Assembly (NCBI GenBank): GCA_041651155.1
Contig: JBAZJU010000001.1
Span: 27,932 to 91,931, forward strand
Reading direction: 5' to 3'
Source: Patescibacteria group bacterium
GTDB lineage: Bacteria; Patescibacteriota; Patescibacteriia; CAIXNZ01
DNA: 64,000 bases
In this document: positions 6,568-53,153 of the stretch, piece by piece
Layout of the letters: every line of letters begins with the position of its first letter
How positions within the stretch are numbered: the stretch's first letter is position 1
Made by a program: the position numbers and the translations under genes
The notes under the pieces: generated by a model
The model's input: only the letters and a program-made list of their open reading frames with translations
What the model was told of the DNA's origin: nothing
Database searches by the model: none

Positions 6568-9348
6568 ATGAAAGAAATCCCCAAGGCCTACGATCCCAAA
6601 GAAGTTGAGGATAAAATTTATAAGTTATGGGAAGAATCAGGTTATTTTAATCCTGACAATTTGCCAGGTAATCGGCCTGATTATTTTTCCATTGCTATGC
6701 CGCCGCCAAATAGAACCGGTACCTTGCATACCGGCCATGCTTCCATGCTTGCTTATCAGGATTTAATGACGCGTTATAACCGGCTGGCAGGTAAAAAAAC
6801 TTTATGGCTGCCAGGCACTGATCATGCGGCGATCGCCACCCAAACTAAAGTTGAAAAAATTTTATATAAGGAGGAAAAGAAAACGCGCTATGATTTGGGA
6901 AAAGAAAAATTTTTAAAAAAAGTTGCTGAATTTGCAGAGGAATCTAAAAAAACAATTAATAATCAGGTGCGCAAAATGGGCTCATCCTGCGACTGGTCGC
7001 GTGAACGTTATACTTTGGATGATGGCTTAAACCAAGTAGTTAAATATGCTTTTGTGAAAATGCATGACGCTGGCTTGATCTATCGCGGTTATCGCATTGT
7101 TAATTGGTGCCCGCGTTGCGCTTCAACTCTGGCTGATGATGAAGTTGAATATGTGGCAACCAAAACAAAATTTTATACTTTCAAATATGCAAAAGATTTT
7201 CCGATTTCAATTTCCACTACCCGGCCTGAAACAAAATTGGGTGATACTGCAGTAGCTGTTAATCCCAAAGACCAGCGTTATAAAAAATTTATAGGTAAAA
7301 CATTTACAATAGATTTAGGCCATGGCAAACAGAAAATTAAAATTGTGGCTGATGAGTCAGTTGACCCCAAATTTGGCACAGGCGCTCTTGGCGTTACGCC
7401 TGCCCATTCTTTTGTGGATTTTGAAATTGCCCAAAAAAATAAATTGCCATTGATAAAAGTAATAGGCGAGGATGGCAAAATGACCAAAGAGGCAGGCAAG
7501 GATTATGAGGGATTAACGGTTTTAAAAGCCAGAGAAAAATTCGTGGCCTGGTTGGAAAAAAATAAATTAATGGACAAGGTGGAAGAAGTTGAACAAAATT
7601 TGAGCGTGTGTTATCGTTGCAATTCACTGATTGAACCTCTGCCCTCATTACAGTGGTTTGTGGACGTCAATAAAAAAATAACTTTAAAAGGCAATAAATA
7701 TTTCCAGAAAAAATCTCTCAAAGAAGTTGCCTTGCAGGTTGTGAAGGATAATGAAATAAAAATAATTCCCCAAAGATTTGAAGCAAATTATTTTCACTGG
7801 CTGGAAAATTTGCGCGATTGGTGCATTTCCCGCCAGATTTGGTTTGGGCATCAGATTCCCGTGTGGTACAGATCCTCCTCCGCTAAAGCTTCGGAGGACG
7901 GGGGTAAGGAAATTTATGTTGGGCTAGAAGCGCCAAAAGAAAAAGGATTTAAACAGGATGAAGATACTTTGGATACTTGGTTTTCATCTGGGCTGTGGAC
8001 TTTTTCAACATTATTAGATAAAGATTTTAAAAAATATAAATCTTGGGAGGATTGGATTAATGGTTCTAAGGATTTAGAATTTCATCCGACTTCAGTCATG
8101 GAAACTGGTTATGATATTTTATTTTTTTGGGTGGCACGCATGATTATCCAGACCACTTTCATGCTCGGTCAGATTCCATTTAAAAATGTTTATTTACATG
8201 GTTTGGTGCGCGATGAAAAAGGCAAAAAAATGTCCAAATCCTTGGGTAATGTGGTTGATCCTTTGGATATGATTAAAAAATTCGGCACTGATGCTCTGCG
8301 TTTGGCCATGATTTCAGGCACTTCAGCTGGTGCTGATTCGCGCTTGTATGATGAAAAAGTTGAGGGCAGCCGCAACTTTGTGAATAAGCTTTGGAATATA
8401 TCCCGTTATATTTTAACTTCAGTGCGCGAAGTCAGGCGAGTTGAGGAAATTCCTCATGGTGAAACTCTGGCTGACCAGTGGATTTTGGCAAAATTGGATT
8501 TGGTGATTAATGAAGTGACAGCAGATATTAATAAATTTAATTTTCCCGGGGCGGTTGAGGCTTTGCGCGAATTTACCTGGTCTGATCTGGCTGACTGGTA
8601 TTTGGAAATATCAAAATTGCAGATCAAAGAAAGTCCTGATAAACCTTATGAAGAATTAGGCGTGCATACTGAGACAATTTTACTTTATGTTTTGGAAAAA
8701 CTTTTAATTTTATGGCATCCGTTTATTCCTTTTGTGACAGAAGATATTTGGTCAAATTTTGAAGACGAGGATTTATTGATGATTCAGCCTTGGCCTTTAG
8801 TGACTGATAAAGAATTATTTACTGACATTAAAGATAGAGAATATCATGAGGAAACAGATAAGCTTTTGGATTACGATGAAATTTTGTATCCTTTTTATAA
8901 ATTTGAAGAAATTGTCATGACCATCAGAAATTTGCGCTCTGATTTTAAAATTGAACCAGCGAAAAAGGTTGAGGTCACAATTGTTGGGAAAGATTTAGAT
9001 AAAATAAAATTAAATGAACAAATTGATAATATAATTTATCTGGCTCGTTTGAATAATTTAGAAATCGGGAAAATTAAACCAGATAATTCTGTGTCTCATG
9101 TTTTGGAAGGAGTGGGTGAGATTTGTTTACATTTGCAGGGTCTCGTTGATTTGCCAAAAGAAAAAGCTCGTTTGGAAAATGAAATTGCCAGCGTTAAAAA
9201 ATATGCGCAATCTTTGGCACAAAAATTAAAGAATAAAGAGTTTACAAAAAAAGCGCCTAAGGATGTGGTGGAGAAAGAGCAAGAGAAATTAAAGCAACAG
9301 CAAGAGAAATTGGTGAAATTGGAAGAACAATTGAATAGCTTGAAATAG
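6568..9348 (+). CDS. valS: valine--tRNA ligase
   Basis: HIGH-region PPPNRTGTLHTGHA, KMSKSLGN motif, and a C-terminal coiled coil. Start placed at ATG 6568 (MKEIPKAYDPKEV). Confidence 0.9.
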   Translation: MKEIPKAYDPKEVEDKIYKLWEESGYFNPDNLPGNRPDYFSIAMPPPNRTGTLHTGHASMLAYQDLMTRYNRLAGKKTLWLPGTDHAAIATQTKVEKILYKEEKKTRYDLGKEKFLKKVAEFAEESKKTINNQVRKMGSSCDWSRERYTLDDGLNQVVKYAFVKMHDAGLIYRGYRIVNWCPRCASTLADDEVEYVATKTKFYTFKYAKDFPISISTTRPETKLGDTAVAVNPKDQRYKKFIGKTFTIDLGHGKQKIKIVADESVDPKFGTGALGVTPAHSFVDFEIAQKNKLPLIKVIGEDGKMTKEAGKDYEGLTVLKAREKFVAWLEKNKLMDKVEEVEQNLSVCYRCNSLIEPLPSLQWFVDVNKKITLKGNKYFQKKSLKEVALQVVKDNEIKIIPQRFEANYFHWLENLRDWCISRQIWFGHQIPVWYRSSSAKASEDGGKEIYVGLEAPKEKGFKQDEDTLDTWFSSGLWTFSTLLDKDFKKYKSWEDWINGSKDLEFHPTSVMETGYDILFFWVARMIIQTTFMLGQIPFKNVYLHGLVRDEKGKKMSKSLGNVVDPLDMIKKFGTDALRLAMISGTSAGADSRLYDEKVEGSRNFVNKLWNISRYILTSVREVRRVEEIPHGETLADQWILAKLDLVINEVTADINKFNFPGAVEALREFTWSDLADWYLEISKLQIKESPDKPYEELGVHTETILLYVLEKLLILWHPFIPFVTEDIWSNFEDEDLLMIQPWPLVTDKELFTDIKDREYHEETDKLLDYDEILYPFYKFEEIVMTIRNLRSDFKIEPAKKVEVTIVGKDLDKIKLNEQIDNIIYLARLNNLEIGKIKPDNSVSHVLEGVGEICLHLQGLVDLPKEKARLENEIASVKKYAQSLAQKLKNKEFTKKAPKDVVEKEQEKLKQQQEKLVKLEEQLNSLK
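7876..7898. repeat. mini-hairpin element (TCCTCCG-CTAAAGCTT-CGGAGGA) inserted in-frame in valS
   Basis: The 15-nt core CGCTAAAGCTTCGGA is identical to the element at 11949-11976 and is related to copies at 4247-4272 and 37330-37352. It encodes SSAKASED in a variable region before the DTWFSS motif. Confidence 0.5.
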
Positions 9349-9431
9349 TATTAAGTAGTAAGTATTAAGAATTAAGTATTAAGAATAAAGAATATTGATT
9401 AAGCGGGTTGTGAAAACGAGCTGCTTTTTTA

Positions 9432-9459
9432 TTGACAAAATTTTTTAAAATCGTAGAAT
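9432..9459 (+). promoter_or_regulatory. sigma70-like promoter, TTGACA-16 nt-TAGAAT
   Basis: Consensus hexamers 20 nt upstream of the RBS of the 9479 small ORF. Confidence 0.4.
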
Positions 9460-9478
9460 AGAGAACAAGGAGGAAATA

Positions 9479-9622
9479 ATGGACAAGAAAAGGAAAATAT
9501 TAAGTGATTGTCCTTTGGAGGATAAAACATGTGATGATTGCGACCAACAAATAGCTTGTCGGGAATTAGCAGCCAAAAGGAAAATATCATTGTTTGGCCG
9601 GATTAAAAAGTTGTTCACTTAA
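9479..9622 (+). CDS. small Cys-rich protein (47 aa), hypothetical
   Basis: ATG preceded by AAGGAGGAAATA. Sequence is MDKKRKILSDCPLEDKTCDDCDQQIACRELAAKRKISLFGRIKKLFT. Below the ORF-track size cutoff. Confidence 0.4.
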   Translation: MDKKRKILSDCPLEDKTCDDCDQQIACRELAAKRKISLFGRIKKLFT

Positions 9623-9636
9623 ACAAAGGAGGGAAA

Positions 9637-9816
9637 ATGGCAACGAATAATTTGCTGGTAATTATTGGTGAAAATGGAGAGATTGCTGAGACAGACGGCA
9701 GTGTAGAAAAAGAAACTCGTCAGGAGCGCAAGAATTTTAAAGCGTTTAAAAAAGAATTAGACGCTCTTTTGCGCCAAGTGCGAAATCCCGTGTCTTTTAA
9801 TGGGACAATGAAGTAA
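9637..9816 (+). CDS. small protein (59 aa), hypothetical
   Basis: ATG preceded by AAGGAGGGAAA. Sequence is MATNNLLVIIGENGEIAETDGSVEKETRQERKNFKAFKKELDALLRQVRNPVSFNGTMK. Followed by a terminator. Confidence 0.4.
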   Translation: MATNNLLVIIGENGEIAETDGSVEKETRQERKNFKAFKKELDALLRQVRNPVSFNGTMK

Positions 9817-9841
9817 AATAGTTTACAGGATAATAATAAAT

Positions 9842-9868
9842 AGGCGGCTCGCAAATGAGCCGCTTTTT
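9842..9868 (+). terminator. rho-independent terminator
   Basis: GGCGGCTC gcaaat GAGCCGC followed by TTTTTG. Confidence 0.5.
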
Positions 9869-9938
9869 GTTCTCTTGAGTTTGACACGGAGTTGTTTGTT
9901 TGGTAATTTGAAAAAAACAAGAAAGGAGGTGAAGTACA

Positions 9939-10490
9939 TTGCAAATTAAAAAAGGGACATGGCGCGTTGCGATTCTGATTCCTAAACTGAACATTGCGAT
10001 TAAACTGCCACGGATATATTTGCGTCCTGCCTGGAAAATAATAAAAAAGATGTCTACCAGCAAAACATGGTTACACTGGCAATTATTTAAGAGTACCGTT
10101 TACAGTGAAATTTCTCTCAGACAATGGATCTTTAGGGGCATAGTGGAAAATTGGCAAGAATTTTGGTTTTACCAGAAAACCAGGAATCTGTTTTGTGTTC
10201 CAACATATTTTTCCTTTTTGGGGCTCTTTAACATTCAAAAGCTGGGTTCAGAACCCAAAATCAATATCAATGATTTGCATTACCAATTTGTCATATTCAC
10301 TAACAATGAAGCCCGCGGTCACCATTATGACAATAATGGTAATTTTTCCTATCAAAATAGAAAATTGCAAATTCTTGATTATGGTTCTCCTAAGGTTCAG
10401 AAAGTGATTATTGAATTTGGCGCATTGCTGCAGGAGAAATTTGATATTAATGCCAAATGTCCGCACGATGGAATTATAAGCGGCTTGTGA
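9939..10490 (+). CDS. hypothetical protein (TTG start after AAAGGAGGTGAAG RBS)
   Basis: 183-aa ORF. No recognisable domain. Confidence 0.4.
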   Translation: MQIKKGTWRVAILIPKLNIAIKLPRIYLRPAWKIIKKMSTSKTWLHWQLFKSTVYSEISLRQWIFRGIVENWQEFWFYQKTRNLFCVPTYFSFLGLFNIQKLGSEPKININDLHYQFVIFTNNEARGHHYDNNGNFSYQNRKLQILDYGSPKVQKVIIEFGALLQEKFDINAKCPHDGIISGL

Positions 10491-10653
10491 AAACAGGTCG
10501 CTTTTTTATTAGGATACTAATCTACGAATATTATACGAATCTACTAATATTTCCAGAAGGAATTTGTTGTAAATTTAGGGAATTTATGATAAATTTAAGT
10601 TATAAATATTAAAATTTTTTATGCCCTGCTTTAGCAGGCAATTGATTTTTTTG

Positions 10654-10696
10654 CCCACTTCCGCCGTCGCTGTGCTATGGCGGACAAGAAAGTGGG
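10654..10696 (+). promoter_or_regulatory. nested hairpin in the tyrS 5' leader
   Basis: CCCACTT-CCGCC...GGCGG-acaagaA-AAGTGGG gives an outer 7-bp stem and an inner 5-bp stem, 18 nt upstream of the tyrS ATG. A second hairpin GCCCTGCTTTAGCAGGC lies at 10623-10639. Confidence 0.3.
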
Positions 10697-10713
10697 GTAT
10701 AAATTTAAAAAAT

Positions 10714-11919
10714 ATGGCAAAAGTTATTATAGACGAAAAATTAATTGAGGAAATTTTGAGGCGGGGGGTGGAACATGTTTATCCAGAACCAGGCGCTTTG
10801 AAAAAAGTTTTAATGTCAGGTAAAAGAATAAGGATTTATTGCGGGTTTGACCCAACAGGGCCTGATTTACATATTGGCCATGGCAATCAGTTGCGCAAAA
10901 TGGCTCAATTTCAGAAATTAGGACATGAAGTGATTTTTTTAATTGGCGATTTTACAGCCAGGATTGGCGATCCGACTGACAAGCTAGCTGCCAGAAAACA
11001 GCTTACCAAAAAAGAAGTAGAAAAAAATTTTCAGGGCTGGAAAAAGCAAGCCAGCAGTATTTTAGATTTTGGCAATAAAAATCCTATTAAGATAATGTAC
11101 AATTCAAAATGGCATGAGAAATTAAAGCTATCTGATGCTTTAGAGCTTGGTTCAAAAGTGACTGTCCAGAGAATGCTGGAACGCGACATGTTTGAAAAAA
11201 GAATGCAGGAAGGCAAACCAATTTATTTACATGAATTTTTGTACCCATTGATGCAAGGTTATGATAGCGTGGTTATGGACGTTGACCTAGAAATTGGGGG
11301 AAATGATCAAACATTTAACATGTTAATTGGCCGTGATTTAATGAAAACTTTAAAAAACAAAGAAAAGTTTGTCTTAACTATTAAACTTTTAGTTGATCCT
11401 AATGGCAAAAAAATGGGCAAGACAGAAGGTAATATGGTGGAATTATCAGATAGTCCTGAAAATATGTTTGGTAAAATCATGTCCTGGCCTGATGAAATGA
11501 TTATTGAGGTTTTTGAAATTTGCACAGATGTTCCCTTGGTTGAAATTAAGAAAATGAAAGAGCAAATGCAAACCGGCACTAACCCTCGCAATTTTAAATT
11601 ACTATTGGCATTTGAGATTGTAAAAATTTACAAAGGCGAGAAAGCAGCCAATGAGGCTCAGCTTAATTTTATAAAAGTTTTTTCCAATAAAGAAATACCG
11701 GAAGAAGTAAAAAGTTATAAAGTAGAAAGTAGAAAGCTTTTGGAAATTTTGGAAGAAACCGGTTTAGTAACTTCCAGGTCAGAAGCGCGGCGGGTAATTG
11801 AGCAGGGCGGAGTGAAAATTGATAATGAAGTTATTAAAGATGTGAATTTTAATTTATCATCTGGCGAACATTTGATTCAGAAGGGGAAGAGATTTTTCGT
11901 GAAAGTGATTATTGAATAA
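10714..11919 (+). CDS. tyrS: tyrosine--tRNA ligase
   Basis: HIGH motif GFDPTGPDLHIGHG, KMGKTEGN (KMSKS), and a C-terminal S4 domain. Start placed at ATG 10714 (MAKVIIDEK). Confidence 0.9.
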   Translation: MAKVIIDEKLIEEILRRGVEHVYPEPGALKKVLMSGKRIRIYCGFDPTGPDLHIGHGNQLRKMAQFQKLGHEVIFLIGDFTARIGDPTDKLAARKQLTKKEVEKNFQGWKKQASSILDFGNKNPIKIMYNSKWHEKLKLSDALELGSKVTVQRMLERDMFEKRMQEGKPIYLHEFLYPLMQGYDSVVMDVDLEIGGNDQTFNMLIGRDLMKTLKNKEKFVLTIKLLVDPNGKKMGKTEGNMVELSDSPENMFGKIMSWPDEMIIEVFEICTDVPLVEIKKMKEQMQTGTNPRNFKLLLAFEIVKIYKGEKAANEAQLNFIKVFSNKEIPEEVKSYKVESRKLLEILEETGLVTSRSEARRVIEQGGVKIDNEVIKDVNFNLSSGEHLIQKGKRFFVKVIIE

Positions 11920-11948
11920 AGGGAAGAGGAGTAAGAAGGGTAAAAGGG

Positions 11949-11976
11949 GTCATCCTACGCTAAAGCTTCGGATGAC
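11949..11976. repeat. mini-hairpin element GTCATCC-TACGCTAAAGCTTC-GGATGAC
   Basis: Perfect 7-bp stem. The loop carries the conserved core CGCTAAAGCTTCGG. It lies 30 nt after the tyrS stop. Confidence 0.5.
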
Positions 11977-12036
11977 ATGTAAGAAGGGATAAAATAATTT
12001 TTGTAGATTTGTAATATAATTTGTAATTTTGTAGGG

Positions 12037-13746
12037 ATGACTATTAACGACAAAATTAAACAGGAAATCGTTAACCTTTTAAAAAAACAAAAGGTCATGA
12101 TTAAAATTGAGGATTTGGAAATGCCGCCGAGTGCGGAAATGGGTGACTGGGCTTTGCCTTGTTTTAATTTGGCCAAAGAATTTAAACGAGCGCCGCAGGA
12201 GGTGGCTAAAGATTTTGCTCAGAATTTGAAACCCAGCGGATTAATTATAAATTTTAAAAGCATTGGGCCTTATTTAAATTTTGTGATTGACGCAAGCAAG
12301 GTGGCAGAAATAGTTTTAAAAGAAATTAGTAATAGTAAGCGCAAATATGGCCAAAGTAAAATCGGGAAAAAAGAAAAAGTAATGATTGAATATTCCCAGC
12401 CTAATACGCACAAGGAATTTCATGTCGGGCATTTGCGCAATGTCTGCATTGGCTCTGCTTTGGTCAATATTTATAAAAATTGTAATTATAAAGTTATTTC
12501 CGCCAATTATCCGGCAGATTCCGGAGCGCATGTGGCAAAAACTTTATGGTACATGCAAGAATATTTAAATCAAAGCGATATACCATCTGATCCGGCTGAC
12601 CGCGGTGAATTTTTAGGTCAAACTTATGCGCGCTCTGTGGCTGAACTTAAAGATCATCCAGAATTTAAACCTCAAGTTCAGGATGTGATGTTAAAATTAG
12701 AGGCCGGTGATAAACAATTAACAAAATTGTGGCAGGAAACAAGGCAATGGAGCTTGGATCAGTTTAATAAAATTTATAAAGAACTTGGCGTTGATTTTGA
12801 TGTTTGGTTTTATGAAAGCGTGGAAGAAAAAGAAGGCAAGAAAATGCTGCCTCAGCTTTTAAAGCATAGTTTTATCAAAAAGAGCGAGGGTGCGATCATC
12901 GCGGATTTAATCGAATATAATTTGGGAATTTTAGTTTTAATTCGTCAGGATGGCACTGCTTTGTATGGCATTAAGGACTTGGCTTTGGCCATGAAAAAAT
13001 TTAAAAAATATAGGATAAATAAATCCTTGTATTTAGTAGACATTCGCCAGTCGCAATATTTTCAGCAAATATTTAAGATTTTAGAATTGCTGGGCTTTAA
13101 AAAGGAAATGGTTTATGTGCCCTATGAATTTGTGCAATTAAAATCTGGGATTATTTCTTCGCGCACTGGCAATATTGTGACCTATGAAGAAGTGAAAGAA
13201 GCGGCTTTAAATAAAGTTTTGGCTGAAACTAAAGTCCGTCATCCCGATTGGTCTGAAAAGAAAGTTAATGAGGTGAGTTTGAAAATCGTGTTGGCTGCTT
13301 TGAAATTTGGCATGCTCAAAAGCGGTAATGACAAGGTGATTACTTTTGATATAAATGAATCTTTGGATTTAAACGGCTTTACCGGGCCATATTTGCAATA
13401 TACTTTGGCGCGTTTAAATTCTATTTTTAGAAAATTGGGCAAAGTAAAGACTAAAATAAGAATTGATTATAAAAATTTAGCCGCACCAATTGAAACTCAA
13501 TTGATTAAAGATTTAGCTGCTTATCCTGATAAAATTTTAGAAAGTTTAAAGATAAACGACCCCTCGATTATTGCCCAATATTCATTTAAATTATCCCAGG
13601 ATTTTAATGCCTTTTATCACGAACTCCCGGTTTTAAAAGCTAAGCTTGATGTTCAGGCAGCGCGTTTGGAACTTTTAAAGTCCATCTTGCAGGTCTTAAA
13701 AAATGGTTTAGAGATATTAGGGTTAGAAACACTAATTGAAATGTAA
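12037..13746 (+). CDS. argS: arginine--tRNA ligase
   Basis: 569 aa. Contains HVGHLRNVCIGSAL (HIGH-like) and a C-terminal DALR anticodon-binding region (YLQYTLARLNSIFRK). Confidence 0.9.
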   Translation: MTINDKIKQEIVNLLKKQKVMIKIEDLEMPPSAEMGDWALPCFNLAKEFKRAPQEVAKDFAQNLKPSGLIINFKSIGPYLNFVIDASKVAEIVLKEISNSKRKYGQSKIGKKEKVMIEYSQPNTHKEFHVGHLRNVCIGSALVNIYKNCNYKVISANYPADSGAHVAKTLWYMQEYLNQSDIPSDPADRGEFLGQTYARSVAELKDHPEFKPQVQDVMLKLEAGDKQLTKLWQETRQWSLDQFNKIYKELGVDFDVWFYESVEEKEGKKMLPQLLKHSFIKKSEGAIIADLIEYNLGILVLIRQDGTALYGIKDLALAMKKFKKYRINKSLYLVDIRQSQYFQQIFKILELLGFKKEMVYVPYEFVQLKSGIISSRTGNIVTYEEVKEAALNKVLAETKVRHPDWSEKKVNEVSLKIVLAALKFGMLKSGNDKVITFDINESLDLNGFTGPYLQYTLARLNSIFRKLGKVKTKIRIDYKNLAAPIETQLIKDLAAYPDKILESLKINDPSIIAQYSFKLSQDFNAFYHELPVLKAKLDVQAARLELLKSILQVLKNGLEILGLETLIEM

Positions 13747-13795: not shown

Positions 13796-14773
13796 TTTTC
13801 TAGACTTACAGTCCATAGCTTTTCCCTCGGGAGCGGGGATCCTCCATCTGGCATTTGCATCAGTATCATTGGCGGAAGAAAGAAAGACCGCCTCGCTGGG
13901 CAAGTTCCCAGATTTCCCCTTTTGGGAGACTAAGCTCTAGAATTACTTCTAGTCGGAGACATATTGTTTGCAAGATTGTATTTAGCCGGCATTCCGGTAA
14001 AATGATTTTGGCTTAGAATTTTTCTTGCGCACTTTATGTTTGGGCTATGAGGCTGGAGATAGCTGAAATGAGAAAGAACTCTCCCGATATTGCCTTTGCT
14101 AGTCTAAAAAACTCAACTGATTTTAGTTTAACTTATTACTTAATTATTGGCAATCTTTTAGGGATTTTTCCACAGAAATTAGATGGAGTTGTTAAAAGTT
14201 ATTAACAAAAAGCCGCTTGCTTTATTATCCTGAAAAAAATGAGAGGACAAGGATTCTTCGCTTTGCTTTGAATGACAGAAGAGGTTTTTTGTTTAACTGT
14301 GCATAAATCATCTAATTATTTTTAACAAAAATTGAGATTAAAAACCTCTTGTCAGAAAAAACAGGCATGATATTTTTAAGGCATAAATGCTTGAGCCAAA
14401 ATTAGCTTGGGCAATATAAAGTAAAACTATGAAAGGGGGAAACAAAAATCAAAAAAAGAGAGCACTCCTTCGCACAAGGCTACGGAGTGCAGGGAGGTAA
14501 ACACTTTTAATTGTGAAGGTGTTTTTTTATTGTTAGTTCTTTGAAAACAAAAAACAAAAGAAAGGAGTACGTGATTTAAAGTAGAAAAAGTTTAAAAGCA
14601 ACAGGAGCGCGTCATTTGGCAAGAAAAAAGCTTAACCTCAAAAATTGGACGAGTTGAAAAGCATTTTAACGCGACCTTTGGCACGTTAAAATGTCTGGCC
14701 CTGCACTAGCCTAGTTATGTACTGGGCAGTGCAGGGTAAAGTTTAACCCAAAACAAATTCAAGGAGTTCTGAA

Positions 14774-17443
14774 ATGAAAAAGTTAGTGACAATCGCGGTT
14801 ATGGTTCTGGTGGCTATGCTTTCACAAGAGGCTTTGGCTCACCAGATGTATATCAAGCAAAACCCGACAAACCAGATGGGTATTGAATTTGGCGTGGACA
14901 ACGCGACCGGCTTTGTACGTTGGCGCGCTTATGTCAAAGGCTGGACCAATAACAGCCAAGGCTTAAATTCCGGCTGGCAATCAGCCAATGGCTGGTGGTA
15001 TTATGACATCTCTTCGTTAACCCAAAGAGTCATGTGGCGTTTGGATGGTTTGACCAACCAAAAGTTTACAATTACTTACTGGGTATTTAAAAGCGATGGC
15101 ACTTGGGAATATGGTCCGCAAGTGGAAGTGATCTCAGACCAGATCCTGCCAACTGCCTTATTTGCCAGTCCTACCAATGGCCAGACTTTCACAACCAACC
15201 AGTTCAATATCTCAGTTAGCTCAAATGACAGCTTAAGTGGCGTGGCAGCGATCAGGATTTACGCTGTGGTACCCAGCGGCTTTAGTTTGAGCGGCTGGAC
15301 GCCTTCAGGTTTAGCTAACCAGTTTTACAAAGAATTTGGCCCATCTTCAATTAACTACAATTTTGTAGCTCCAAGTCCGGGCGCATATACCTTTACTCTC
15401 TGGGTCAAGGATAATGCCGGCAATATTGCCTATGAACCTGGTGGTCCAATTACAGTAAATGTAAATCAAGAAAATCCTCCGCCTCAGCCTACTCCGCCGA
15501 TCGCACCCAGCAATTTACAGCTCACAGCCAATGGCCAGGCAATTACTTTAACTTGGCAGGACAATTCCAGCGATGAAGAAGGTTTTGGCTTGTACAAAAA
15601 TAGCCAGTTTGTAAAAAATTTTACAGCCAATACCACTACTTATGCAGACTCTGGACTGCAATATGGCCAAAGCTACTGCTACAATGTTTATGCTTTCAAG
15701 GCTGGCTTAAATAGTTCTGGCATTGAAAGCTGCTTAACGCTGACAGCGCCGCCAAGCACAGACTATCACTATGCTGACAGCTTTACTTATCCATTAGCCT
15801 GCGACAAAATTTACAGAATTGAAAAAGATACGGAAATCCCAACTGGCGCCTGCTTTGATTATCAGCCTTATGGTTCACTTTTTGCCTACCTGGATAAAAT
15901 TCATCAGGGAGATGATCTGAACCTTAAAGGCATTAATGATTTAGGCAAACCAGTTTATGCGATTGCTAATGCTCTTGTTTGGGACTATGGCTGGACAAGC
16001 GGCTGGGGCAATTATCTGATTTTGCGCATTCAGGCCAACCCAGGACAATTTTTTTTCCTGACAGATAGCACAAAAGTTACAGAGATTTATGTGCTTTACG
16101 GCCATTTGGATGAAATTCAGATCATCAAAGATACAGGCGCTGTGATTGAAAAAGCCAGCATTGTGAAACAAGGGACTTATGTGGCCAAAGGCTGGCAGAT
16201 CGGCACAGTCGGCGACGGCAATGGCAATTTTAGCCCGCATTTGCATTTTGAAATCAGGATTAATGGCTACAGCCAGCTTGGCAATGGTTATTGGCCAGTT
16301 TCTGATCTAACCTATTTAAGCTATTTCGTGGATCCACTGGAATTCATTGAAAATAATGAGTCATTGGCCAAACCAGCTTTGCGTGTTTCTGTGCATGGCT
16401 ATGATATGCAGACATCCCGCAAAGTTAATGTGGCGCTAAACCAAAATTATTGGCACAGGCAGGGACGTGAAAGCGATGGTTTGCCCTTGGCTGCTGTTGG
16501 CTGGGCAAATCATATCTGGCTGACCAGCTCAACAAATGACACAACAGCTTCCTGGAATTTCTACGTGCCGCAAAACGGCGCTTACTCAGTTTACGTTATT
16601 GTGCCGCGTTATTATGGCCAGGCCAGCGGAGTAAGTTACAAAGTCTGGCATAGCAGCCAAAATACAGCCAATCCTTATGTGGCAAAGATAAACCAGGCAA
16701 ACAGCGATGTAAATAATAAGGTTTATCTTGGCACATTTGATTATTATCAGAATAATCAATATTCGGTAGATCTGCTGAGTAAGACTGCTGATAATCCAGC
16801 GAAAAATGTAGCTCTGGATTCAATCGTGCTTACCTATGAAGGTGATCTTGGCACTGGCGGAGGAACTGTTCCGCCGACTGATCCGCCAAGCAGTACAGAG
16901 CCGTTAACGATTAATTCTTCCGGCACACTGACCTTGCGATACTCTGGCACCTACTCAGCGCCGGTATTATACTGCTATGGCTCGGGAATGCCAGGCAGTA
17001 CGCCCATATTTTCCGGAGGAATTAAAGAAAAAACAATTAATGTCAGCCAATCCGGCAGGGTCTATTGCAACATTGAATTTGAAGACGGCCAGTGGCTGGG
17101 CAATTATCAGGGCATTATGCCAAATCAACATCTGTACGTTGAAGACCAGGAAATTACCTATTTTGAAGATAATGGCCAGGGCGGTAGCAATCTGATTTTT
17201 GACCTGGTTGTTAATGGCGATCCTGGAGATTCTCCGCCTGATGTTGATGATCCATCGGGAACCATAAATTTCAGCGGCACGATTAATGTCCCCGGGCTCG
17301 ATCAGTCCGCTATTAAAGGGGCAATCGGCTGTCAAATCAACAGGGGTGGGCAAGTCTTTAACTTCACAACCCTAATTAATCTGCTCGTTCTTTTCTCTCC
17401 GCTCCTTTTCCTTGTGATGCGCCGGCAAAAAAAATCTGCTTAG
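14774..17443 (+). CDS. secreted multidomain protein: signal peptide, fibronectin type III domain, M23 (LytM-type) metallopeptidase domain, C-terminal hydrophobic anchor
   Basis: Signal peptide MKKLVTIAVMVLVAMLSQEALA. FN3-like segment LQLTANGQAITLTWQDNSSDEEGFGLYKN...YCYNVYAF. M23 motifs YGHLDEI and PHLHFEI. C-terminus ends ...LLVLFSPLLFLVMRRQKKSA. Confidence 0.75.
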   Translation: MKKLVTIAVMVLVAMLSQEALAHQMYIKQNPTNQMGIEFGVDNATGFVRWRAYVKGWTNNSQGLNSGWQSANGWWYYDISSLTQRVMWRLDGLTNQKFTITYWVFKSDGTWEYGPQVEVISDQILPTALFASPTNGQTFTTNQFNISVSSNDSLSGVAAIRIYAVVPSGFSLSGWTPSGLANQFYKEFGPSSINYNFVAPSPGAYTFTLWVKDNAGNIAYEPGGPITVNVNQENPPPQPTPPIAPSNLQLTANGQAITLTWQDNSSDEEGFGLYKNSQFVKNFTANTTTYADSGLQYGQSYCYNVYAFKAGLNSSGIESCLTLTAPPSTDYHYADSFTYPLACDKIYRIEKDTEIPTGACFDYQPYGSLFAYLDKIHQGDDLNLKGINDLGKPVYAIANALVWDYGWTSGWGNYLILRIQANPGQFFFLTDSTKVTEIYVLYGHLDEIQIIKDTGAVIEKASIVKQGTYVAKGWQIGTVGDGNGNFSPHLHFEIRINGYSQLGNGYWPVSDLTYLSYFVDPLEFIENNESLAKPALRVSVHGYDMQTSRKVNVALNQNYWHRQGRESDGLPLAAVGWANHIWLTSSTNDTTASWNFYVPQNGAYSVYVIVPRYYGQASGVSYKVWHSSQNTANPYVAKINQANSDVNNKVYLGTFDYYQNNQYSVDLLSKTADNPAKNVALDSIVLTYEGDLGTGGGTVPPTDPPSSTEPLTINSSGTLTLRYSGTYSAPVLYCYGSGMPGSTPIFSGGIKEKTINVSQSGRVYCNIEFEDGQWLGNYQGIMPNQHLYVEDQEITYFEDNGQGGSNLIFDLVVNGDPGDSPPDVDDPSGTINFSGTINVPGLDQSAIKGAIGCQINRGGQVFNFTTLINLLVLFSPLLFLVMRRQKKSA

Positions 17444-19824: not shown

Positions 19825-19854
19825 CCGCCGCCCCGACGTACGTCGGGGCGGCGG
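19825..19854. repeat. 30-bp perfect GC-rich palindrome CCGCCGCCCCGACGT|ACGTCGGGGCGGCGG
   Basis: Exact reverse-complement symmetry. Lies in the divergent region between murA and the 19934 gene, in an AT-rich context. Confidence 0.6.
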
Positions 19855-34769: not shown

Positions 34770-35363
34770 TTACTGCGGTTTGCAGTGAAGAGCGATTTTG
34801 TTTTCATCGCTCAACGTGATATCAAGAAAATCCTCGGGAAGAACAGGAAACTCGCTGTATCTTGGAAAGGTTATAAATTTATAACTTTCCATTCTAAAAG
34901 AATTACCGTATTTCTGTTTTTCCCATTTGATTAATTCTTTAAGCAGCCCAAGCGGGCAGAAGTGAAGACCAGATTTAATCTCCGCTTTTGGTTTGAGCAC
35001 GAAGTTAAAGATGAGCCCAGTATTGGTGCCGTTCGTAGGTCGTTCGGTTGTCTTGTGGCTTATCCACCAATCCACGCCATTTTCCCACTGCCTGGGATGT
35101 TTATTGCATTCTTGGATTGGCACAAGAACATCAACATCTTTGTGTTCTGCAAAGATGCGGGGGGAGGTGGTGCCTTTCCAAATTTCTTTGGCTAGTCCGC
35201 CGATAAGTATACCGACGGCATTATAATTCTTAAGCACTTGGTCTGCCACTTTAAGCCCTTCAATCCCACAAACGGCATTTAGCGGACTTGGCGCTCTCCA
35301 TTCAAGACGTAGATCCAAACTCATTCTAAGTGCCATCATATTTTTCCCCTCCTTTGACTTCAA
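34770..35363 (-). CDS. putative nucleotidyltransferase-fold protein (minimal NTase-like GG...DxD), uncertain
   Basis: VGILIGGLAKEIWKGTTSPRIFAEHKDVDVLV resembles the hG[GS]...DhDh motif. Overlaps the upstream metallophosphoesterase gene by 11-38 nt depending on the start chosen. Confidence 0.3.
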   Translation of the reverse strand: MKSKEGKNMMALRMSLDLRLEWRAPSPLNAVCGIEGLKVADQVLKNYNAVGILIGGLAKEIWKGTTSPRIFAEHKDVDVLVPIQECNKHPRQWENGVDWWISHKTTERPTNGTNTGLIFNFVLKPKAEIKSGLHFCPLGLLKELIKWEKQKYGNSFRMESYKFITFPRYSEFPVLPEDFLDITLSDENKIALHCKPQ

Positions 35364-36840
35364 TTTCTAGTGTTTCCGTATTAATGAGCACAGTTTGTAA
35401 GCTGTGTATGTGCTCGCCACCAGGATTAATACAGAGCGTATTTCCGAGTAAAGTGACATTGGCGCCATAAAGCCGTGGCGCTTCATGGATGTGGCCGAAA
35501 AGAGCTATTTGTGGTTGCGCTTCCAGAATGAATTGCATTATGCCCTGACTGCCTGCGTGTTTTTGGCCATTCACTTGATCCAACACTTCGTAAGGTGGAT
35601 TATGAATTACCCAAACTGCTTTTTGTTCGCCAAGCTGGTTTTGCAAAACACGAAGCTCCGCCAGGATTTCTTTTGATTTTTTTTCCCAGGCTCGGTACAG
35701 GATTTTTGGTGGCAGGGATTCTACAAAGCTGTAGCCGACGATCGCAAAGTTTTCATCTAATTTGTGGATTTTACCGTGAAGATAGTAGATTATTCCTTCG
35801 CGTTCAGCTTCTTCTAGCAATGATGCGTTCTCAATCAGGTCGTCATTGCCGAGCATTGCATAGACTGGTTTATTGTTGTTGGCTGCTCTCCATTGTTTTG
35901 TCAGAGGCAGAAAAAATTTCTGAAAGAATTTCTGCTGAGCCTGTTTAAGGTGAGCAGGATCTTCTGCTTTATTTTTCAGTTGCGCTATGTTTGAATGTTT
36001 CGCCAAAGAAGCGATATGGGTTTCTTCCAGGATCGTTTTGTAGGCATGAGCCCGAAAGAGTCTTGTATTTGTGTCCTTGAATGATTGGAGAATATGCTTT
36101 GCCAGCGGGCTTTTATGCTCAAGTAAAACTTTTTCAACTCCGTGGGTAATCTTTGTCATTTGCCCTTGATAGAGCTCAAATAGAATGCACTCCAGCAAAT
36201 ATTGCGATGGTGCCCATTCAGAGAAATTTTTTATTTTTGAGCCAAGAGCCAGCGAACACTTGTGCGTAAAGGCATCGCGCATTGCTTCAGTCCAAGTCTC
36301 CTCTTCCTGCTTTAGCCAATCCACAACGCAATCACCTAAAATATCCAGCTCCATTTCAGAAAGCTGGAGTTGAGCCGGTTTCCCGACTGGCTCAGCGCTT
36401 TTGAAAAAAGCATAGAGCTTTTCAAGTATGATTTGTTCCATCATTAAGGTTTCAAACTCATAGAACTTGTTTGTCAGTTCATAGAGTATGTAGCCTTGTC
36501 GCTCTAGATGCCTTGCCAGAATTGCAGAGCCGATTCTCTCATTGAAAGTTTTGATGGCTTGCAAACTCTCTAAATAAGAATTTGATTTTAAGCTCTGTTC
36601 GAGACTGTCAGTCGGAATGACTTCGCCGTCTATAAGCGGCAGATCTTCGTCGTTAATTTCGTAATTTTCTTCTTCAGAGTAGTCAGGGTGCTGTGCAAGT
36701 TTGATAGCTACTGACTTGGGAGTCAGATCGCCACCAAAAACTATTGCATCAGCCTGCTCTTTTTGAGCTAGTCTGAACACAGCTTCAATGGCGTTTTGAT
36801 TCCCGTGTAGATCGGTAGCGTATACAAACCGCATGATCAC
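35326..36840 (-). CDS. calcineurin-like metallophosphoesterase with ~270-aa helical insertion
   Basis: Motifs YATDLHGN, GGDLTP, GNDD, and GHIHE. A long insert separates motifs II and III. Confidence 0.65.
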   Translation of the reverse strand: MIMRFVYATDLHGNQNAIEAVFRLAQKEQADAIVFGGDLTPKSVAIKLAQHPDYSEEENYEINDEDLPLIDGEVIPTDSLEQSLKSNSYLESLQAIKTFNERIGSAILARHLERQGYILYELTNKFYEFETLMMEQIILEKLYAFFKSAEPVGKPAQLQLSEMELDILGDCVVDWLKQEEETWTEAMRDAFTHKCSLALGSKIKNFSEWAPSQYLLECILFELYQGQMTKITHGVEKVLLEHKSPLAKHILQSFKDTNTRLFRAHAYKTILEETHIASLAKHSNIAQLKNKAEDPAHLKQAQQKFFQKFFLPLTKQWRAANNNKPVYAMLGNDDLIENASLLEEAEREGIIYYLHGKIHKLDENFAIVGYSFVESLPPKILYRAWEKKSKEILAELRVLQNQLGEQKAVWVIHNPPYEVLDQVNGQKHAGSQGIMQFILEAQPQIALFGHIHEAPRLYGANVTLLGNTLCINPGGEHIHSLQTVLINTETLEIEVKGGEKYDGT

Positions 36841-37075: not shown

Positions 37076-37211
37076 TGGAATAACTAATAACTTATAACTA
37101 TAACAATAACTCTTGGTATGCGCTTAGCGAAGCTGGTTGCCGTCCGTAAATACTTTAATTCACAACTGCCTGCCTGCCGTAGCTTTAGCGAAGGCAGGAG
37201 CTAAGCGCCCT
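37076..37211 (-). repeat. tRNA-Val-leader repeat unit A (136 nt)
   Basis: Minus-sense begins GGGCGCTTAGCTC, the first 13 nt of tRNA-Val(TAC). It is followed by the hairpin CCTGCC-TTCGCTAAAGCTACG-GCAGG, then GCAGGCAG, then the box AACCAGCTTCGCTAAGC. Confidence 0.5.
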
Positions 37212-37376
37212 AGAATAACTAATAATTTATAACGATAACAATAACTTTTGTAAGGAGCTTAGCGAAGCTGGTTATCACCCATAAATACATACTAACCAAA
37301 CTGCCTGCCTGCCGTAGCTTTTTTATCCGCCGAAGCTTTAGCGTAGGTGGAAGCGAAGGCAGGAGCTAAGTGCCCT
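37212..37376 (-). repeat. tRNA-Val-leader repeat unit B (165 nt), with nested mini-hairpin insertion
   Basis: Begins GGGCACTTAGCTC. Same architecture as unit A, plus an extra CCACCTACGCTAAAGCTTCGGCGG element inserted in the hairpin loop. Confidence 0.5.
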
Positions 37377-37482: not shown

Positions 37483-38190
37483 TTAATTTATATTATCAAG
37501 TATATTAAAAATTTTCAAGCGTTTTCTTCGTAAACATGGTATTTTATCTGAATAATAAATTTTTTTTAGTAAAATTTTCGATTCATTCTTGGCATATTTT
37601 AGTTGATATATTGTAGATTTTTTGGCATGAGTAATGTGCCCATTTAGATTAATAATTTGTTTGATACTTTTCCTTAACCATAAAATATGTTGTTTGCTTG
37701 CAGACACGAAAGTCGTATAAAACATTAAACTTGATTTCCAGCGTTTATCCCAATAAGAATAAAAGGAACCATCTCCATCAAAGTGACCTCTTAAAAAATC
37801 AAAAAAATATTGTTTAGGAATTTTTATGTCATTTAATATTTTCGTTTTGTTTGGCATTAACCCTATGCTTAATAAGAATTTATAAAAATTAACATCCCCA
37901 AATTGAATTACATAATATTTTTTTATTTTATTTCCACCCCGCGATTTTTTACCAATTTTGTTCGTTAATTTTAATATTTTTTTGAATTTTAAAACAAGCT
38001 CTTTGTCCTTAGATGTAAAGTGAATGTGCCTCTTATCAGATGAAAGATTTCCATCGGTTGTAATTAGTCCAATAATATAGGCAAACTCTGGAGCCCATTT
38101 AATTAAAATTTTTGATTGTGGTTTTGACATAATTATCTCAAATTCAAAGCGTCTGCCAATTTTATTATATAATATTTTTACTCTTAACAC
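37483..38190 (-). CDS. LAGLIDADG-family homing endonuclease (two-motif, free-standing)
   Basis: Two LAGLIDADG motifs: FAYIIGLITTDGNL and FLRGHFDGDGSF. Stop codon is 8 nt from the tRNA-Leu 5' end. Confidence 0.75.
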   Translation of the reverse strand: MLRVKILYNKIGRRFEFEIIMSKPQSKILIKWAPEFAYIIGLITTDGNLSSDKRHIHFTSKDKELVLKFKKILKLTNKIGKKSRGGNKIKKYYVIQFGDVNFYKFLLSIGLMPNKTKILNDIKIPKQYFFDFLRGHFDGDGSFYSYWDKRWKSSLMFYTTFVSASKQHILWLRKSIKQIINLNGHITHAKKSTIYQLKYAKNESKILLKKIYYSDKIPCLRRKRLKIFNILDNIN

Positions 38191-39872: not shown

Positions 39873-40032
39873 ATTAAATAAATGATTTCCGCCAAAGGCG
39901 GATCAGCCTCTGGCTGAAAATTGTTAGGTTGTTAGTACTCTTTATAGTATGGTAGCAATTTTTATAGGTTTAGACAAGATGGTTGTTTTTTGTTATTATT
40001 ATAAGAGAATTAAATTTTAAGCCAAAACCAGC

Positions 40033-43619: not shown

Positions 43620-44375
43620 ATGTCTTATCTAATCTACGTTTACAACTTAATTTTTTATCAGCCGCTTTTTAATGGCTTGATTTGGCTTTATAATGTTTTG
43701 CCTGGCCATGACATTGGCATAGCGATTTTAGTTTTGACTGTGGCAATCCGCGTAATCCTTTTCCCGCTTTATTACCAGTCAATCAAATCGCAAAAAGCTT
43801 TACAGGATATTCAGCCCAAAGTTGATGCTTTGAAAAAACAGTATGCCAATGATAAGGAAAAAATGGCGCAGGAAATGATGAATTTGTATAAGCAAGATAA
43901 AGTCAATCCTTTTTCATCATGCCTGCCGCTCTTGATTCAATTTCCATTTTTAATTGCTGTTTATCAGGTCTTTAGACAAGGCTTAAGCTCGCAGGGTTTT
44001 GAAATGCTTTATTCTTTTGTGGCTCAGCCAGATAAAATCAACCCCATATTTTTGGGCTTTGTTAATTTAGCTGTTCCTAGTTTGGCGCTGGCAGTCTTGG
44101 CTGGCGCGGCTCAATTCTGGCAAACAAAAATGCTGATGGCCAAAAAGCCGCCTTTAGTAAATCAGAAAGAAATAAAAGGTTCAGGAGATGAAAAAACTTT
44201 GGCTGTGATGAATAAGCAAATGCTGTATTTTATGCCGATTTTTACTGTCATTATTGGCGCCAGTTTGCCGGCTGGATTAACATTGTATTGGTTTACCACG
44301 ACATTGCTCATGGCCTTGCAGCAGCTGTGGATGTTTGGACGACATAAGAAAACTGAAACACCTGCCTCCGTTTAA
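43620..44375 (+). CDS. yidC: membrane protein insertase YidC (short form)
   Basis: 251 aa. YQSIKSQKALQDIQPKVDALKKQY...MMNLYKQDKVNPFSSCLP is the conserved YidC/Oxa1 core. Confidence 0.8.
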   Translation: MSYLIYVYNLIFYQPLFNGLIWLYNVLPGHDIGIAILVLTVAIRVILFPLYYQSIKSQKALQDIQPKVDALKKQYANDKEKMAQEMMNLYKQDKVNPFSSCLPLLIQFPFLIAVYQVFRQGLSSQGFEMLYSFVAQPDKINPIFLGFVNLAVPSLALAVLAGAAQFWQTKMLMAKKPPLVNQKEIKGSGDEKTLAVMNKQMLYFMPIFTVIIGASLPAGLTLYWFTTTLLMALQQLWMFGRHKKTETPASV

Positions 44376-44386
44376 AACTTCGGTCT

Positions 44387-44440
44387 TCACCGACTGAAGT
44401 CGGTTTCGACCGACGAAGGTCGGCAGGCAGGCTAAAATAA
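44387..44440 (+). repeat. cluster of three overlapping hairpins ending in GGCAGGCAGG
   Basis: CTTCGGTC..GACTGAAG, then GTCGG-tttcg-ACCGAC, then CCGAC-gaag-GTCGG. The tail GGCAGGCAG also ends the tRNA-leader hairpins. Confidence 0.4.
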
Positions 44441-52376: not shown

Positions 52377-52432
52377 CCCACTTTAGTGGGCTCGCCTTGG
52401 CGAAGCCAGGCCTGCTAAAGCAGGGTATAAAT
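52377..52432 (+). promoter_or_regulatory. three tandem hairpins (CCCAC-ttta-GTGGG; GCCTTGGC-gaa-GCCAGGC; CCTGC-taaa-GCAGG) followed by GTATAAAT
   Basis: Lies 80 nt upstream of the 52514 ORF. The hairpin + GTATAAAWT arrangement recurs upstream of groES. Confidence 0.35.
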
Positions 52433-53130: not shown

Positions 53131-53153
53131 CCCACTAAAGTGGGGTATAAAAT
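53131..53153 (+). promoter_or_regulatory. inverted repeat CCCAC-taaa-GTGGG + GTATAAAAT immediately upstream of groES (candidate operator / -10)
   Basis: 14-bp perfect IR followed by a TATAAA box. Ends 13 nt before the groES ATG. No CIRCE present. Confidence 0.4.

Follow-up and report, generated by a model that had tools for sequence, protein, structure and literature searches.

A dispersed 30-nt hairpin in a Patescibacteria genome, probably a mobile repeat akin to repetitive extragenic palindromes

We analysed a stretch of 64,000 nucleotides (positions 27,932 to 91,931 of contig JBAZJU010000001.1, Patescibacteria group bacterium), which is called the window below and supplies all coordinates given without a locus name. 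It encodes the valyl-, tyrosyl- and arginyl-tRNA synthetases (ValRS, TyrRS, ArgRS), YidC, NusA, GroES/EL, and others, a gene set that identifies a bacterium with a small genome. The relatives of its ValRS are Falkowbacteria/Buchananbacteria-like, and the protein is 100% identical to one on a 348-kb contig of a Patescibacteria group bacterium. As the G+C content of the window is only 37%, GC-rich hairpins are conspicuous. The subject of this study is a family of such hairpins, based on a unit of 30 nt, of which a preliminary description of the DNA had listed four copies. All four are present where they had been placed; a fifth one (37169-37198, minus strand) had been overlooked. These hairpins are probably a mobile repeat of the kind known as repetitive extragenic palindromic (REP) sequences.

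The canonical copy is located on the plus strand between tyrS and argS (11949-11976); its arms GTCATCC and GGATGAC enclose the loop TACGCTAAAGCTTC. A copy in locus L121 of a relative (1951-1986) has the arms and the purine-rich GGGTAAGAAGGG-type flanks of this copy and occupies a different genomic site. The second copy lies in frame within valS (7873-7902, plus strand), consists of TCCTCC, TCCGCTAAAGCTTC, GGAGGA, and the tail CGGG, and is translated as SSSAKASEDG. It had been described as spanning 7876-7898; the copy is real, but these limits fall short of the full inserted unit. The third copy (4247-4276, plus strand; CCCACC, TACGCTGATGCTTC, GGTGGG, CAGG) has a drifted loop and belongs to a leader unit of tRNA-Val(gac) at 4235-4327. 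Three further copies are hosted by two tandem leader units of tRNA-Val(tac) on the minus strand (37375-37255 and 37210-37120; repeat D7). In the first of these units, a host hairpin (37304-37363; CCTGCC, TTCGCT[insert]AAAGCTAC, GGCAGG, CAGG) is interrupted by a nested copy (37322-37351), which reads TCCACC, TACGCTAAAGCTTC, GGCGGA with one A.C mismatch, followed by TAAA, and occupies 30 nt between CGCT and AAAGC. The second unit contains the uninterrupted copy at 37169-37198 (CCTGCC, TTCGCTAAAGCTAC, GGCAGG, CAGG; 1 mismatch in the 14-mer search described below).

A covariance model made from the hairpin family, R1, was used to scan the window and its relatives. In the window, it found the five main copies at 40-46 bits (11949, 44.6 bits; valS, 45.8 bits; 4247, 40 bits; 37169, 45 bits) and added 2-3 diverged ones, two of which are described here. 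The first of these (14462-14494, plus strand; GCACTCC, TTCGCACAAGGCTAC, GGAGTGC, AGGG; 19.8 bits, E 0.01) is intergenic, follows argS, and has an ortholog at L295 9980-10016. The second, 29 nt in length (10660-10688, plus strand; TCCGCC, GTCGCTGTGCTAT, GGCGGA, CAAG), is nested in another repeat at CCCACT^AAAGTGGGG. A hairpin cluster reported after yidC proved to contain a related CCTGCC...GGCAGG-CAGG hairpin, which lies at 44361-44431 on the plus strand, but its loop TCCGTTTAAAACTTC is degenerate; this composite harbours nested CGGT/ACCG mini-hairpins and has a minimum free energy of -35.3 kcal/mol (z -4.1). At 39888-39902 (plus strand), the canonical arms surround a loop of 3 nt (TCCGCC-AAA-GGCGGA), and TCAGCC-TCT-GGCTGA comes next. 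When up to 2 mismatches were accepted, the 14-mer CGCTAAAGCTTCGG matched the 64-kb window 5 times, compared to 0.31 matches expected; none of 100 shuffles reached 5, and every match is part of a hairpin. Similarly, GGCAGGCAG, which comprises the 3' arm GGCAGG and the tail CAGG of copies with CCTGCC/GGCAGG arms, was found 6 times (0.29 expected). A chance origin is excluded by this enrichment and by the pairing statistics given below.

Copies from other genomes were collected by scanning species-representative genomes for CTNCGCTAAAGCTTCGG. The scan led to at least 120 loci; 124 matches were listed, and the counts for other genomes given in the following refer to these unless a different sample is named. 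Nearly all matches share the same hairpin context. The consensus unit of 30 nt consists of the 5' arm YCCKCC, the 14-nt loop TNCGCTAAAGCTTC, the 3' arm GGMGGR, and the 3' tail YARG, for which the listed matches give C-A-R-G. The stem has 6 GC-rich base pairs, which covary: in 122 unfiltered copies, pair -2/17 is GC 53, TA 32, AT 8, CG 4, and pair -5/20 is CG 52, TA 39. In a subset of 87 sequences, from which some poorly paired copies had been removed beforehand, 94% of the cells were paired, whereas shuffling gave 78% and sliding the partner 35-51%. The covariation upholds the view of a single hairpin family, whose arms differ between copies and are complementary all the same. A CUUCGG tetraloop, which had also been proposed, is at variance with the data: The GG of CTTCGG pairs with a CC located 14 nt upstream (both pairs in 122/122 copies), and the predicted folds have a 14-nt loop. 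Moreover, a C(UUCG)G hairpin would comprise at most 2 bp, because the adjoining base is C in just 55% of the copies.

Folded as RNA or DNA, the unit is predicted to form a stem of 6-7 bp; within the loop, a GC/GC mini-stem of 2 bp would carry TAAA at its tip (GC-TAAA-GC). On the complementary strand, a CYTR tetranucleotide precedes the hairpin, which is the layout of a REP. The loop is not constant locus by locus, as it has drifted in the older copies at 4247, 10660, and 14462. Its conservation looks like that of a source copy or of a feature recognised by the mobilising machinery, and not like the result of local selection. The preliminary idea of a mobile mini-element is retained as the best reading, the loop being the conserved and presumably recognised part. 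An H-type pseudoknot between the loop GCUU and the tail AAGC was considered and ruled out on geometric grounds, since 1 nt alone would have to span the 6-bp helix. For an origin from a universal RNA (3' end of rRNA with the anti-Shine-Dalgarno sequence, 5S rRNA, T-arm of tRNA), a comparison made only by eye gave no convincing match. An Rfam scan with gathering thresholds and with E-values up to 5 returned tRNAs only and no family for the hairpin; likewise, no published description was found in searches by sequence, encoded peptide, or topic.

The clearest insertion event is that in valS. In comparison to the 88% identical ortholog of L121, the gene contains exactly 30 extra bases (10 codons) at 7873-7902, in a surface loop after PVWY. 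The insert is found in L122 (88% identical) and is missing in P0003, P0005, and P0025. At the same codon, the valS gene of Buchananbacteria RBG_13_39_9 is likewise extended by 30 nt, namely GCCTCC TCCGCTAAAGCTTC GAAGGC CGAG. At a further ValRS site, orthologs contain GW|PSFAKASEGK|PGK and are 10 aa longer than their neighbours; at another one, the in-frame motif WPS[SYF]A[KE]..EG occurs in four lineages. Altogether, in-frame copies occur independently of one another at a minimum of three sites among the ValRS orthologs. Different short inserts, among them PPSADGSTKLTMTASGG and also ESGIRNYESRINSKF, which would be encoded by a palindromic DNA sequence, occupy the same surface loops in the ValRS of other Patescibacteria (P0027, P0032, P0036, P0040, P0004, P0006, P0018); other hairpin families may do likewise in these loops.

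The positions of the copies differ across six relatives, and R1 detected none in 22.7 kb of one relative. About 80% of the copies from other genomes are intergenic. Of the 24 that reside in long open reading frames (ORFs), 13 use the frame encoding xAKAS and 7 the reverse frame encoding EALA; the two frames that contain stop codons are not used. A target duplication of fixed length was detected neither at valS or the nested junctions nor across 121 copies, and both arms of the valS copy are new sequence; the notion that the stems are remade from a target duplication therefore finds no support. Few of the 121 copies are flanked by direct repeats, whose length varies; 8 repeats have at least 8 nt, compared to 1.6 expected. 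Three insertions of a hairpin into a hairpin were identified, all at the apex CT^AAAG: the nested copies at 37322-37351 and 10660-10688, and a copy in the WWE3 locus L018, whose architecture and insertion point are identical to those of 37322-37351.

The preliminary description had advised looking for a nearby transposase, and such a gene exists on the same contig. Locus L298 overlaps positions 1-12135 of the window with 0 mismatches and encodes at 14286-14789, 2.15-2.65 kb left of the window start, a protein of 167 aa. It matches the NCBIfam model NF047646 for REP-associated tyrosine transposases (RAYTs) with 89.3 bits (E 2e-25; curated cutoff 80 bits) and also Pfam Y1_Tnp. The HUH motif (NHYH) and the tyrosine motif YIIGNPFKHGLV are invariant in seven homologs, and an identical protein is encoded on the 348-kb contig that carries the window's ValRS. 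The gene is inserted between those for a pseudouridine synthase and a cytidylate-kinase-like protein, a position at which relatives have nothing; homologs of relatives occur at other loci, e.g. between type IV secretion system (T4SS)-pilin genes in L301. The pair TCCGCC-AAA-GGCGGA and TCAGCC-TCT-GGCTGA, which is present in the window at 39888, also follows the stop codon of the RAYT gene in L301.

Two 5-bp hairpins in inverted orientation, CCTGC-TTTA-GCAGG and CCCAC-TAAA-GTGGG-GTATAAAT, which we call short REPs, stand on either side of the RAYT gene. CCTGC-TTTA-GCAGG has a GTTATWC or GTATAAAT flank. Without the gene, the pair recurs upstream of tyrS. There, one partner (10625-10638, minus strand) is CCTGC-TTTA-GCAGG, with the TAAA orientation on the minus strand; the other one (10654-10704, plus strand) reads CCCAC-T[insert]AAA-GTGGG and then GTATAAAT, the insert being the 29-nt copy at 10660-10688. 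It immediately precedes the ATG at 10705, from which tyrS is likely to start; as listed, the ORF starts at 10621. A short-REP doublet (52377-52424; CCCAC-TTTA-GTGGG ... CCTGC-TAAA-GCAGG-GTATAAAT) was found in a divergent intergenic region, and a single short REP (53131-53152, plus strand; CCCAC-TAAA-GTGGG-GTATAAAA) upstream of groES. In total, the window contains 6 short hairpins with a TAAA or TTTA loop, versus 0-1 when loops of equal base composition served as the control. In three relatives, RAYT homologs are flanked by arrays of like hairpins, which have other arms and the same C-TTTA-G apex; two of these genomes, that of P0003 and RBG_13_39_9, also contain the 30-nt hairpin. The C-TAAA-G apex is common to the 30-nt hairpin and the short REPs next to the RAYT gene.

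Outside this clade of Patescibacteria, the density of copies rarely exceeds one per 8 kb, and the distribution is wide. The exact 17-mer occurs in hairpin context in many classes of Patescibacteria, in Bacteroidota, Nitrospirota, Planctomycetota, Verrucomicrobiota, Acidobacteriota, Chloroflexota, Elusimicrobiota, Omnitrophota, and TM6, and in Alphaproteobacteria, which include isolates of Bradyrhizobium, Mesorhizobium, and Sphingorhabdus. In viral contigs, 37 stretches were found, as opposed to 11 for the reversed and 3 for the shuffled control, and most of these copies have a stem. E. coli genomes (28 Gb) do not contain the hairpin, and 7.3 Gb of plasmids contained only a partial match from Thermus. 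At six Bradyrhizobium loci (L021, L040, L048, L065, L086, L087), the hairpin and an inverted, GC-richer variant (CCGGC GAAGCCTTGGCGTAG CCGG) are about 20 nt apart; this pair is a doublet resembling bacterial interspersed mosaic elements (BIMEs) or REP doublets (REPINs).

A considerable fraction of the copies is adjacent to tRNA genes: 24 of 124 lie within 100 nt and 12 of 124 within 10 nt. Any tRNA and either end may be concerned, and the orientation is the same as that of the tRNA in 11 cases and opposite in 13. In L051 and L075, the tail of the hairpin directly abuts position +1 of the tRNA; in an isolate of Sphingorhabdus, a copy is placed in the rRNA spacer directly behind tRNA-Ala. In L023, L076, L104, and L115, the 5' arm is formed from the CCA or acceptor end of the tRNA and is matched by a complementary 3' arm. 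These four loci indicate that the arms can adapt to the flank. With respect to flanking genes, there is a weak orientation bias (26 versus 14, low-GC loci); neither the counts relative to tRNAs nor those relative to genes reveal a strict orientation rule outside the window.

How does the hairpin compare to known systems? With REPs and REPtrons it shares the format of a short, GC-rich, imperfect palindrome, which is multicopy, dispersed, and mainly intergenic and has a conserved tetranucleotide at one foot. In addition, the genome has one RAYT gene flanked by inverted REPs, there is no target duplication, and the loop bases may be what is recognised; in Marinomonas, the group-3 REP is a perfect 5-bp palindrome, and the bases of its TTTA loop are essential (PMC8266576). 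The hairpin differs from REPs in its 14-nt loop with an internal mini-hairpin and in its in-frame intragenic copies; moreover, in this genome it occurs mostly as singletons and not as doublets, and it is not the type that flanks the RAYT gene. REPs are normally lineage-specific, whereas the hairpin is found in many phyla, and it is hosted here by a Patescibacteria genome. Rickettsia palindromic elements resemble the hairpin in their in-frame insertion into genes, including essential ones, and in their location near or within RNA genes, but they are 100-150 bp long and restricted to Rickettsia, whereas the hairpin has 30 nt (10 codons) and many host phyla. The ends of IS200/IS605 elements and the miniature derivatives of these, the palindrome-associated transposable elements (PATEs), are comparable because of their hairpin-dependent single-strand Y1/HUH chemistry, the lack of a duplication, and insertion guided by a short specific sequence, to which the three nested events at CT^AAAG in the family studied here correspond. 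In contrast to these, the hairpin is a single one without distinct left and right ends, has no internal tnpA or tnpB, and was inserted in valS at sites without CT. Miniature inverted-repeat transposable elements (MITEs) such as Correia and Nezha are likewise small, non-autonomous, and possibly co-transcribed; however, they have terminal inverted repeats and a target-site duplication of fixed size and are typically longer than 100 bp, and the hairpin has neither of the first two features.

The element is best filed as a REP-like mini-palindrome in a RAYT-encoding Patescibacteria genome, and not as a new kind of element. Based on the REP layout of the complementary strand, the common apex, and the entry of a copy into a short REP, we think it likely that the 30-nt hairpin constitutes a second class of REP. 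Our overall interpretation, to which we assign a probability of roughly 0.55, is that of a non-autonomous REP-like mini-palindrome, which is moved as a folded single strand by a Y1 enzyme acting in trans. RAYTs nick and strand-transfer single-stranded REPs (PMC8266576; PMC3479197). By analogy, a Y1/HUH enzyme would recognise the folded single strand via the loop, or via the apex and the closing CC/GG pairs, nick it, and transfer the hairpin into DNA that is transiently single-stranded. Insertion would proceed without duplication, with a preference for loops that lie exposed and for the feet of DNA folds, e.g. those of other REPs and of tRNA genes. The arms would be free to vary and would be kept complementary by intrastrand (quasi-palindrome) correction; within genes, only in-frame copies in stop-free frames would survive. 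That the resident RAYT is the enzyme which moves the 30-nt hairpin is a more tentative proposal, and we rate it slightly below even odds.

A number of observations weigh against an RAYT-driven REP. The hairpin lacks the GTAG/CGTC tag: its 5' flank is unconserved, its 3' flank C-A-R-G corresponds to CYTG on the opposite strand, and the sole position at which GTAG could be formed is A in 24% of the cases. With R1, no 30-nt copy was detected beside any of the RAYT loci examined; in four genomes, the flanks consist of the short hairpins. These short TTTA REPs are not enriched in the 120 or more loci of other phyla that host the 30-nt hairpin, so a different mobiliser may be at work there, or everywhere. 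At CT^A, the junction is displaced by one base from C|T, where the E. coli enzyme cuts (PMC3479197), and the valS insertions, for which TACAAA precedes the unit, did not occur at CT. An all-against-all BLAST of 2394 ORFs from these loci gave no family that is represented in more than 6 of them. All 7-8 copies of the window are co-oriented with local transcription, a hint of a constraint at the level of RNA. Finally, it is unusual for REPs, a class of repeats normally specific to a lineage, that a 17-mer is nearly identical from phylum to phylum; this identity is the main feature left unexplained.

Several of these points would be accommodated if the hairpin were mobile without RAYT and the latter served the short REPs only. 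Copies would then arise by template switching or repair at hairpin tips, by gene conversion, or by means of another enzyme or an RNA intermediate. The restriction of the RAYT flanks to short REPs, the fact that these do not accompany the 30-nt hairpin in other phyla, and the lack of a gene recurring near the copies all agree with such a scenario, as do the insertions at hairpin apices and at the exact boundaries of mature tRNAs and the excess of flanking direct repeats of variable length. On the other hand, a defined 30-nt unit, whose ends and loop are kept across phyla, is easier to reconcile with an enzyme that reads the sequence; the apex GC-TAAA-GC is the same as in the REPs flanking the RAYT gene, and a candidate for an alternative enzyme was not found in the window. 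On balance, we regard mobility without RAYT as rather unlikely.

The distribution could also be taken as evidence for a pan-bacterial mobile module, characterised by one 14-nt loop, which crosses phyla (Patescibacteria, Bacteroidota, Alphaproteobacteria, Nitrospirota, Planctomycetota, Acidobacteriota, and phage contigs) and is aimed at tRNA boundaries, tRNA loops, and hairpin tips. Its mechanism would then be unlike the lineage-specific pairing of REP and RAYT and could involve a broadly shared enzyme or a route at the RNA level. We consider this generalisation doubtful.

Quite improbable, in our judgement, is a selected cis-acting RNA element that contributes to the processing or stability of tRNA and rRNA precursors or of 5' untranslated regions and whose spread is secondary. 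The uniform orientation of the window copies, the vicinity of tRNA genes, the copy in the rRNA spacer of Sphingorhabdus, and several copies in relatives that directly precede a Shine-Dalgarno sequence and ATG would fit such a role. Yet it does not explain the in-frame copies at several ValRS sites, the variable presence among close relatives, or the decay of arms and loops in older copies; moreover, copies near tRNAs occur in both orientations, the bias relative to genes is weak, and there is no Rfam family. Very improbable are ordinary intrinsic terminators that share a loop by accident. In the Bacteroidota loci L009, L010, L012, L054, and L056, a T-run follows on the complementary strand right after the 3' end of the tRNA; these reverse-oriented copies probably serve as tRNA terminators, i.e. 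some copies have been co-opted. In the genome of the window, however, the missing T-run excludes this function: the copies continue into CAGG, CAAG, or ATGT, the true terminators of the window are AT-rich, some copies are coding, and the loop is conserved. Solo units of a guide-RNA array, either of the tandem interspaced guide RNA (TIGR) type known from parasitic bacteria or CRISPR-like, can practically be dismissed: the likeness of variable arms and a conserved loop is superficial, since TIGR arrays comprise tandem series of 5-15 units with non-complementary 9-nt spacers and UG...CCA boxes and adjoin a tas gene with a Nop domain (PMC12045711), whereas the window copies are dispersed, their arms are complementary, and there is no Nop-domain tas gene among the Pfam matches of the window.

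The leader units that host copies deserve a separate description. At its start, each carries the initial 13 nt of the tRNA-Val that lies downstream. A GC hairpin and CAGGCAG come next, then a hairpin rich in AT, and finally ACCAGCTTCGCTAA with 4 additional nt; in the tRNA-Val(gac) unit, ACCAGCTTCGCTAATTGC comes after the AT-rich part. The 3' piece is the antisense of the 5' end and D-arm of a tRNA and pairs with the 5' piece. The end pieces change with the tRNA, being AATT for Val-gac and GCTT for Val-tac. Homologous leader units with other hairpin loops were found in the relatives L187, L225, L245, L254, and L296. The equivalent spacer of L121 and L122 has none, i.e. the entire unit that contains the 4247 copy is missing. 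As a 17-mer of the 3' piece equals the antisense of the tRNA-Asp D-arm, most of its matches in metagenomes are genuine tRNA genes.

The window and the relative L122 contain further features. The tRNA gene at 4157-4229, identified by ARAGORN and Rfam, encodes tRNA-Ile with the anticodon TAT (UAU), which implies an unusual reading of AUA without lysidine. In L122 (8050-8290; 88% relative), about 190 nt interrupt the tRNA-Ile(UAU) gene within the anticodon, behind nt 35; CCGCCTGCC...GGCAGGCGG delimit this insert, which holds a second, complete copy of tRNA-Ile. Directly upstream of tRNA-Leu(gag), a free-standing ORF (37483-38190, minus strand) resembles LAGLIDADG_3 homing endonucleases. Between 48606 and 51768, five copies of a repeat of about 60-120 nt precede consecutive small ORFs of the minus strand; it contains TATCCTCGTCTCAAGA and the GC hairpin GCGGGCG...CGCCCGC and may be a shared leader or regulatory element. 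Three pairs of duplicated segments (20144-20443/26260-26559, 23218-23430/26700-26912, 21872-21985/27484-27597), 100-300 nt in length and 87-91% identical, indicate a putative, partly duplicated gene block. For a metallophosphoesterase ORF (35326-36840, minus strand), the Pfam matches are split into residues 3-43 and 391-475, which suggests a large insertion in the domain. Other palindromes and repeats comprise an intergenic, perfect 13-bp GC palindrome at 19825-19854 (CCGCCGCCCCGAC gtac GTCGGGGCGGCGG), GCCAAT...ATTGGC-type palindromes downstream of the gene for the CCA-adding enzyme (380-560), and a short tandem run (GTATTAAG/AATTAAG) immediately behind the valS stop codon (9349-9392).

The REP/RAYT system has been worked out mainly in Proteobacteria. 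Here, an RAYT and two kinds of hairpin repeat are found in an ultra-small Patescibacteria genome, in which each insertion is costly. The events are clean and datable: empty and filled sites exist in an essential aminoacyl-tRNA synthetase, and hairpins have entered hairpins at one defined dinucleotide. With such events at hand, one small enzyme and two oligonucleotides allow a direct test of how REPs disseminate. The hairpin also accounts for some of the short insertions that are scattered in Patescibacteria proteins. If the occurrence of the same hairpin at tRNA ends across phyla holds up, it would point to horizontal spread or to a shared principle of recognition.

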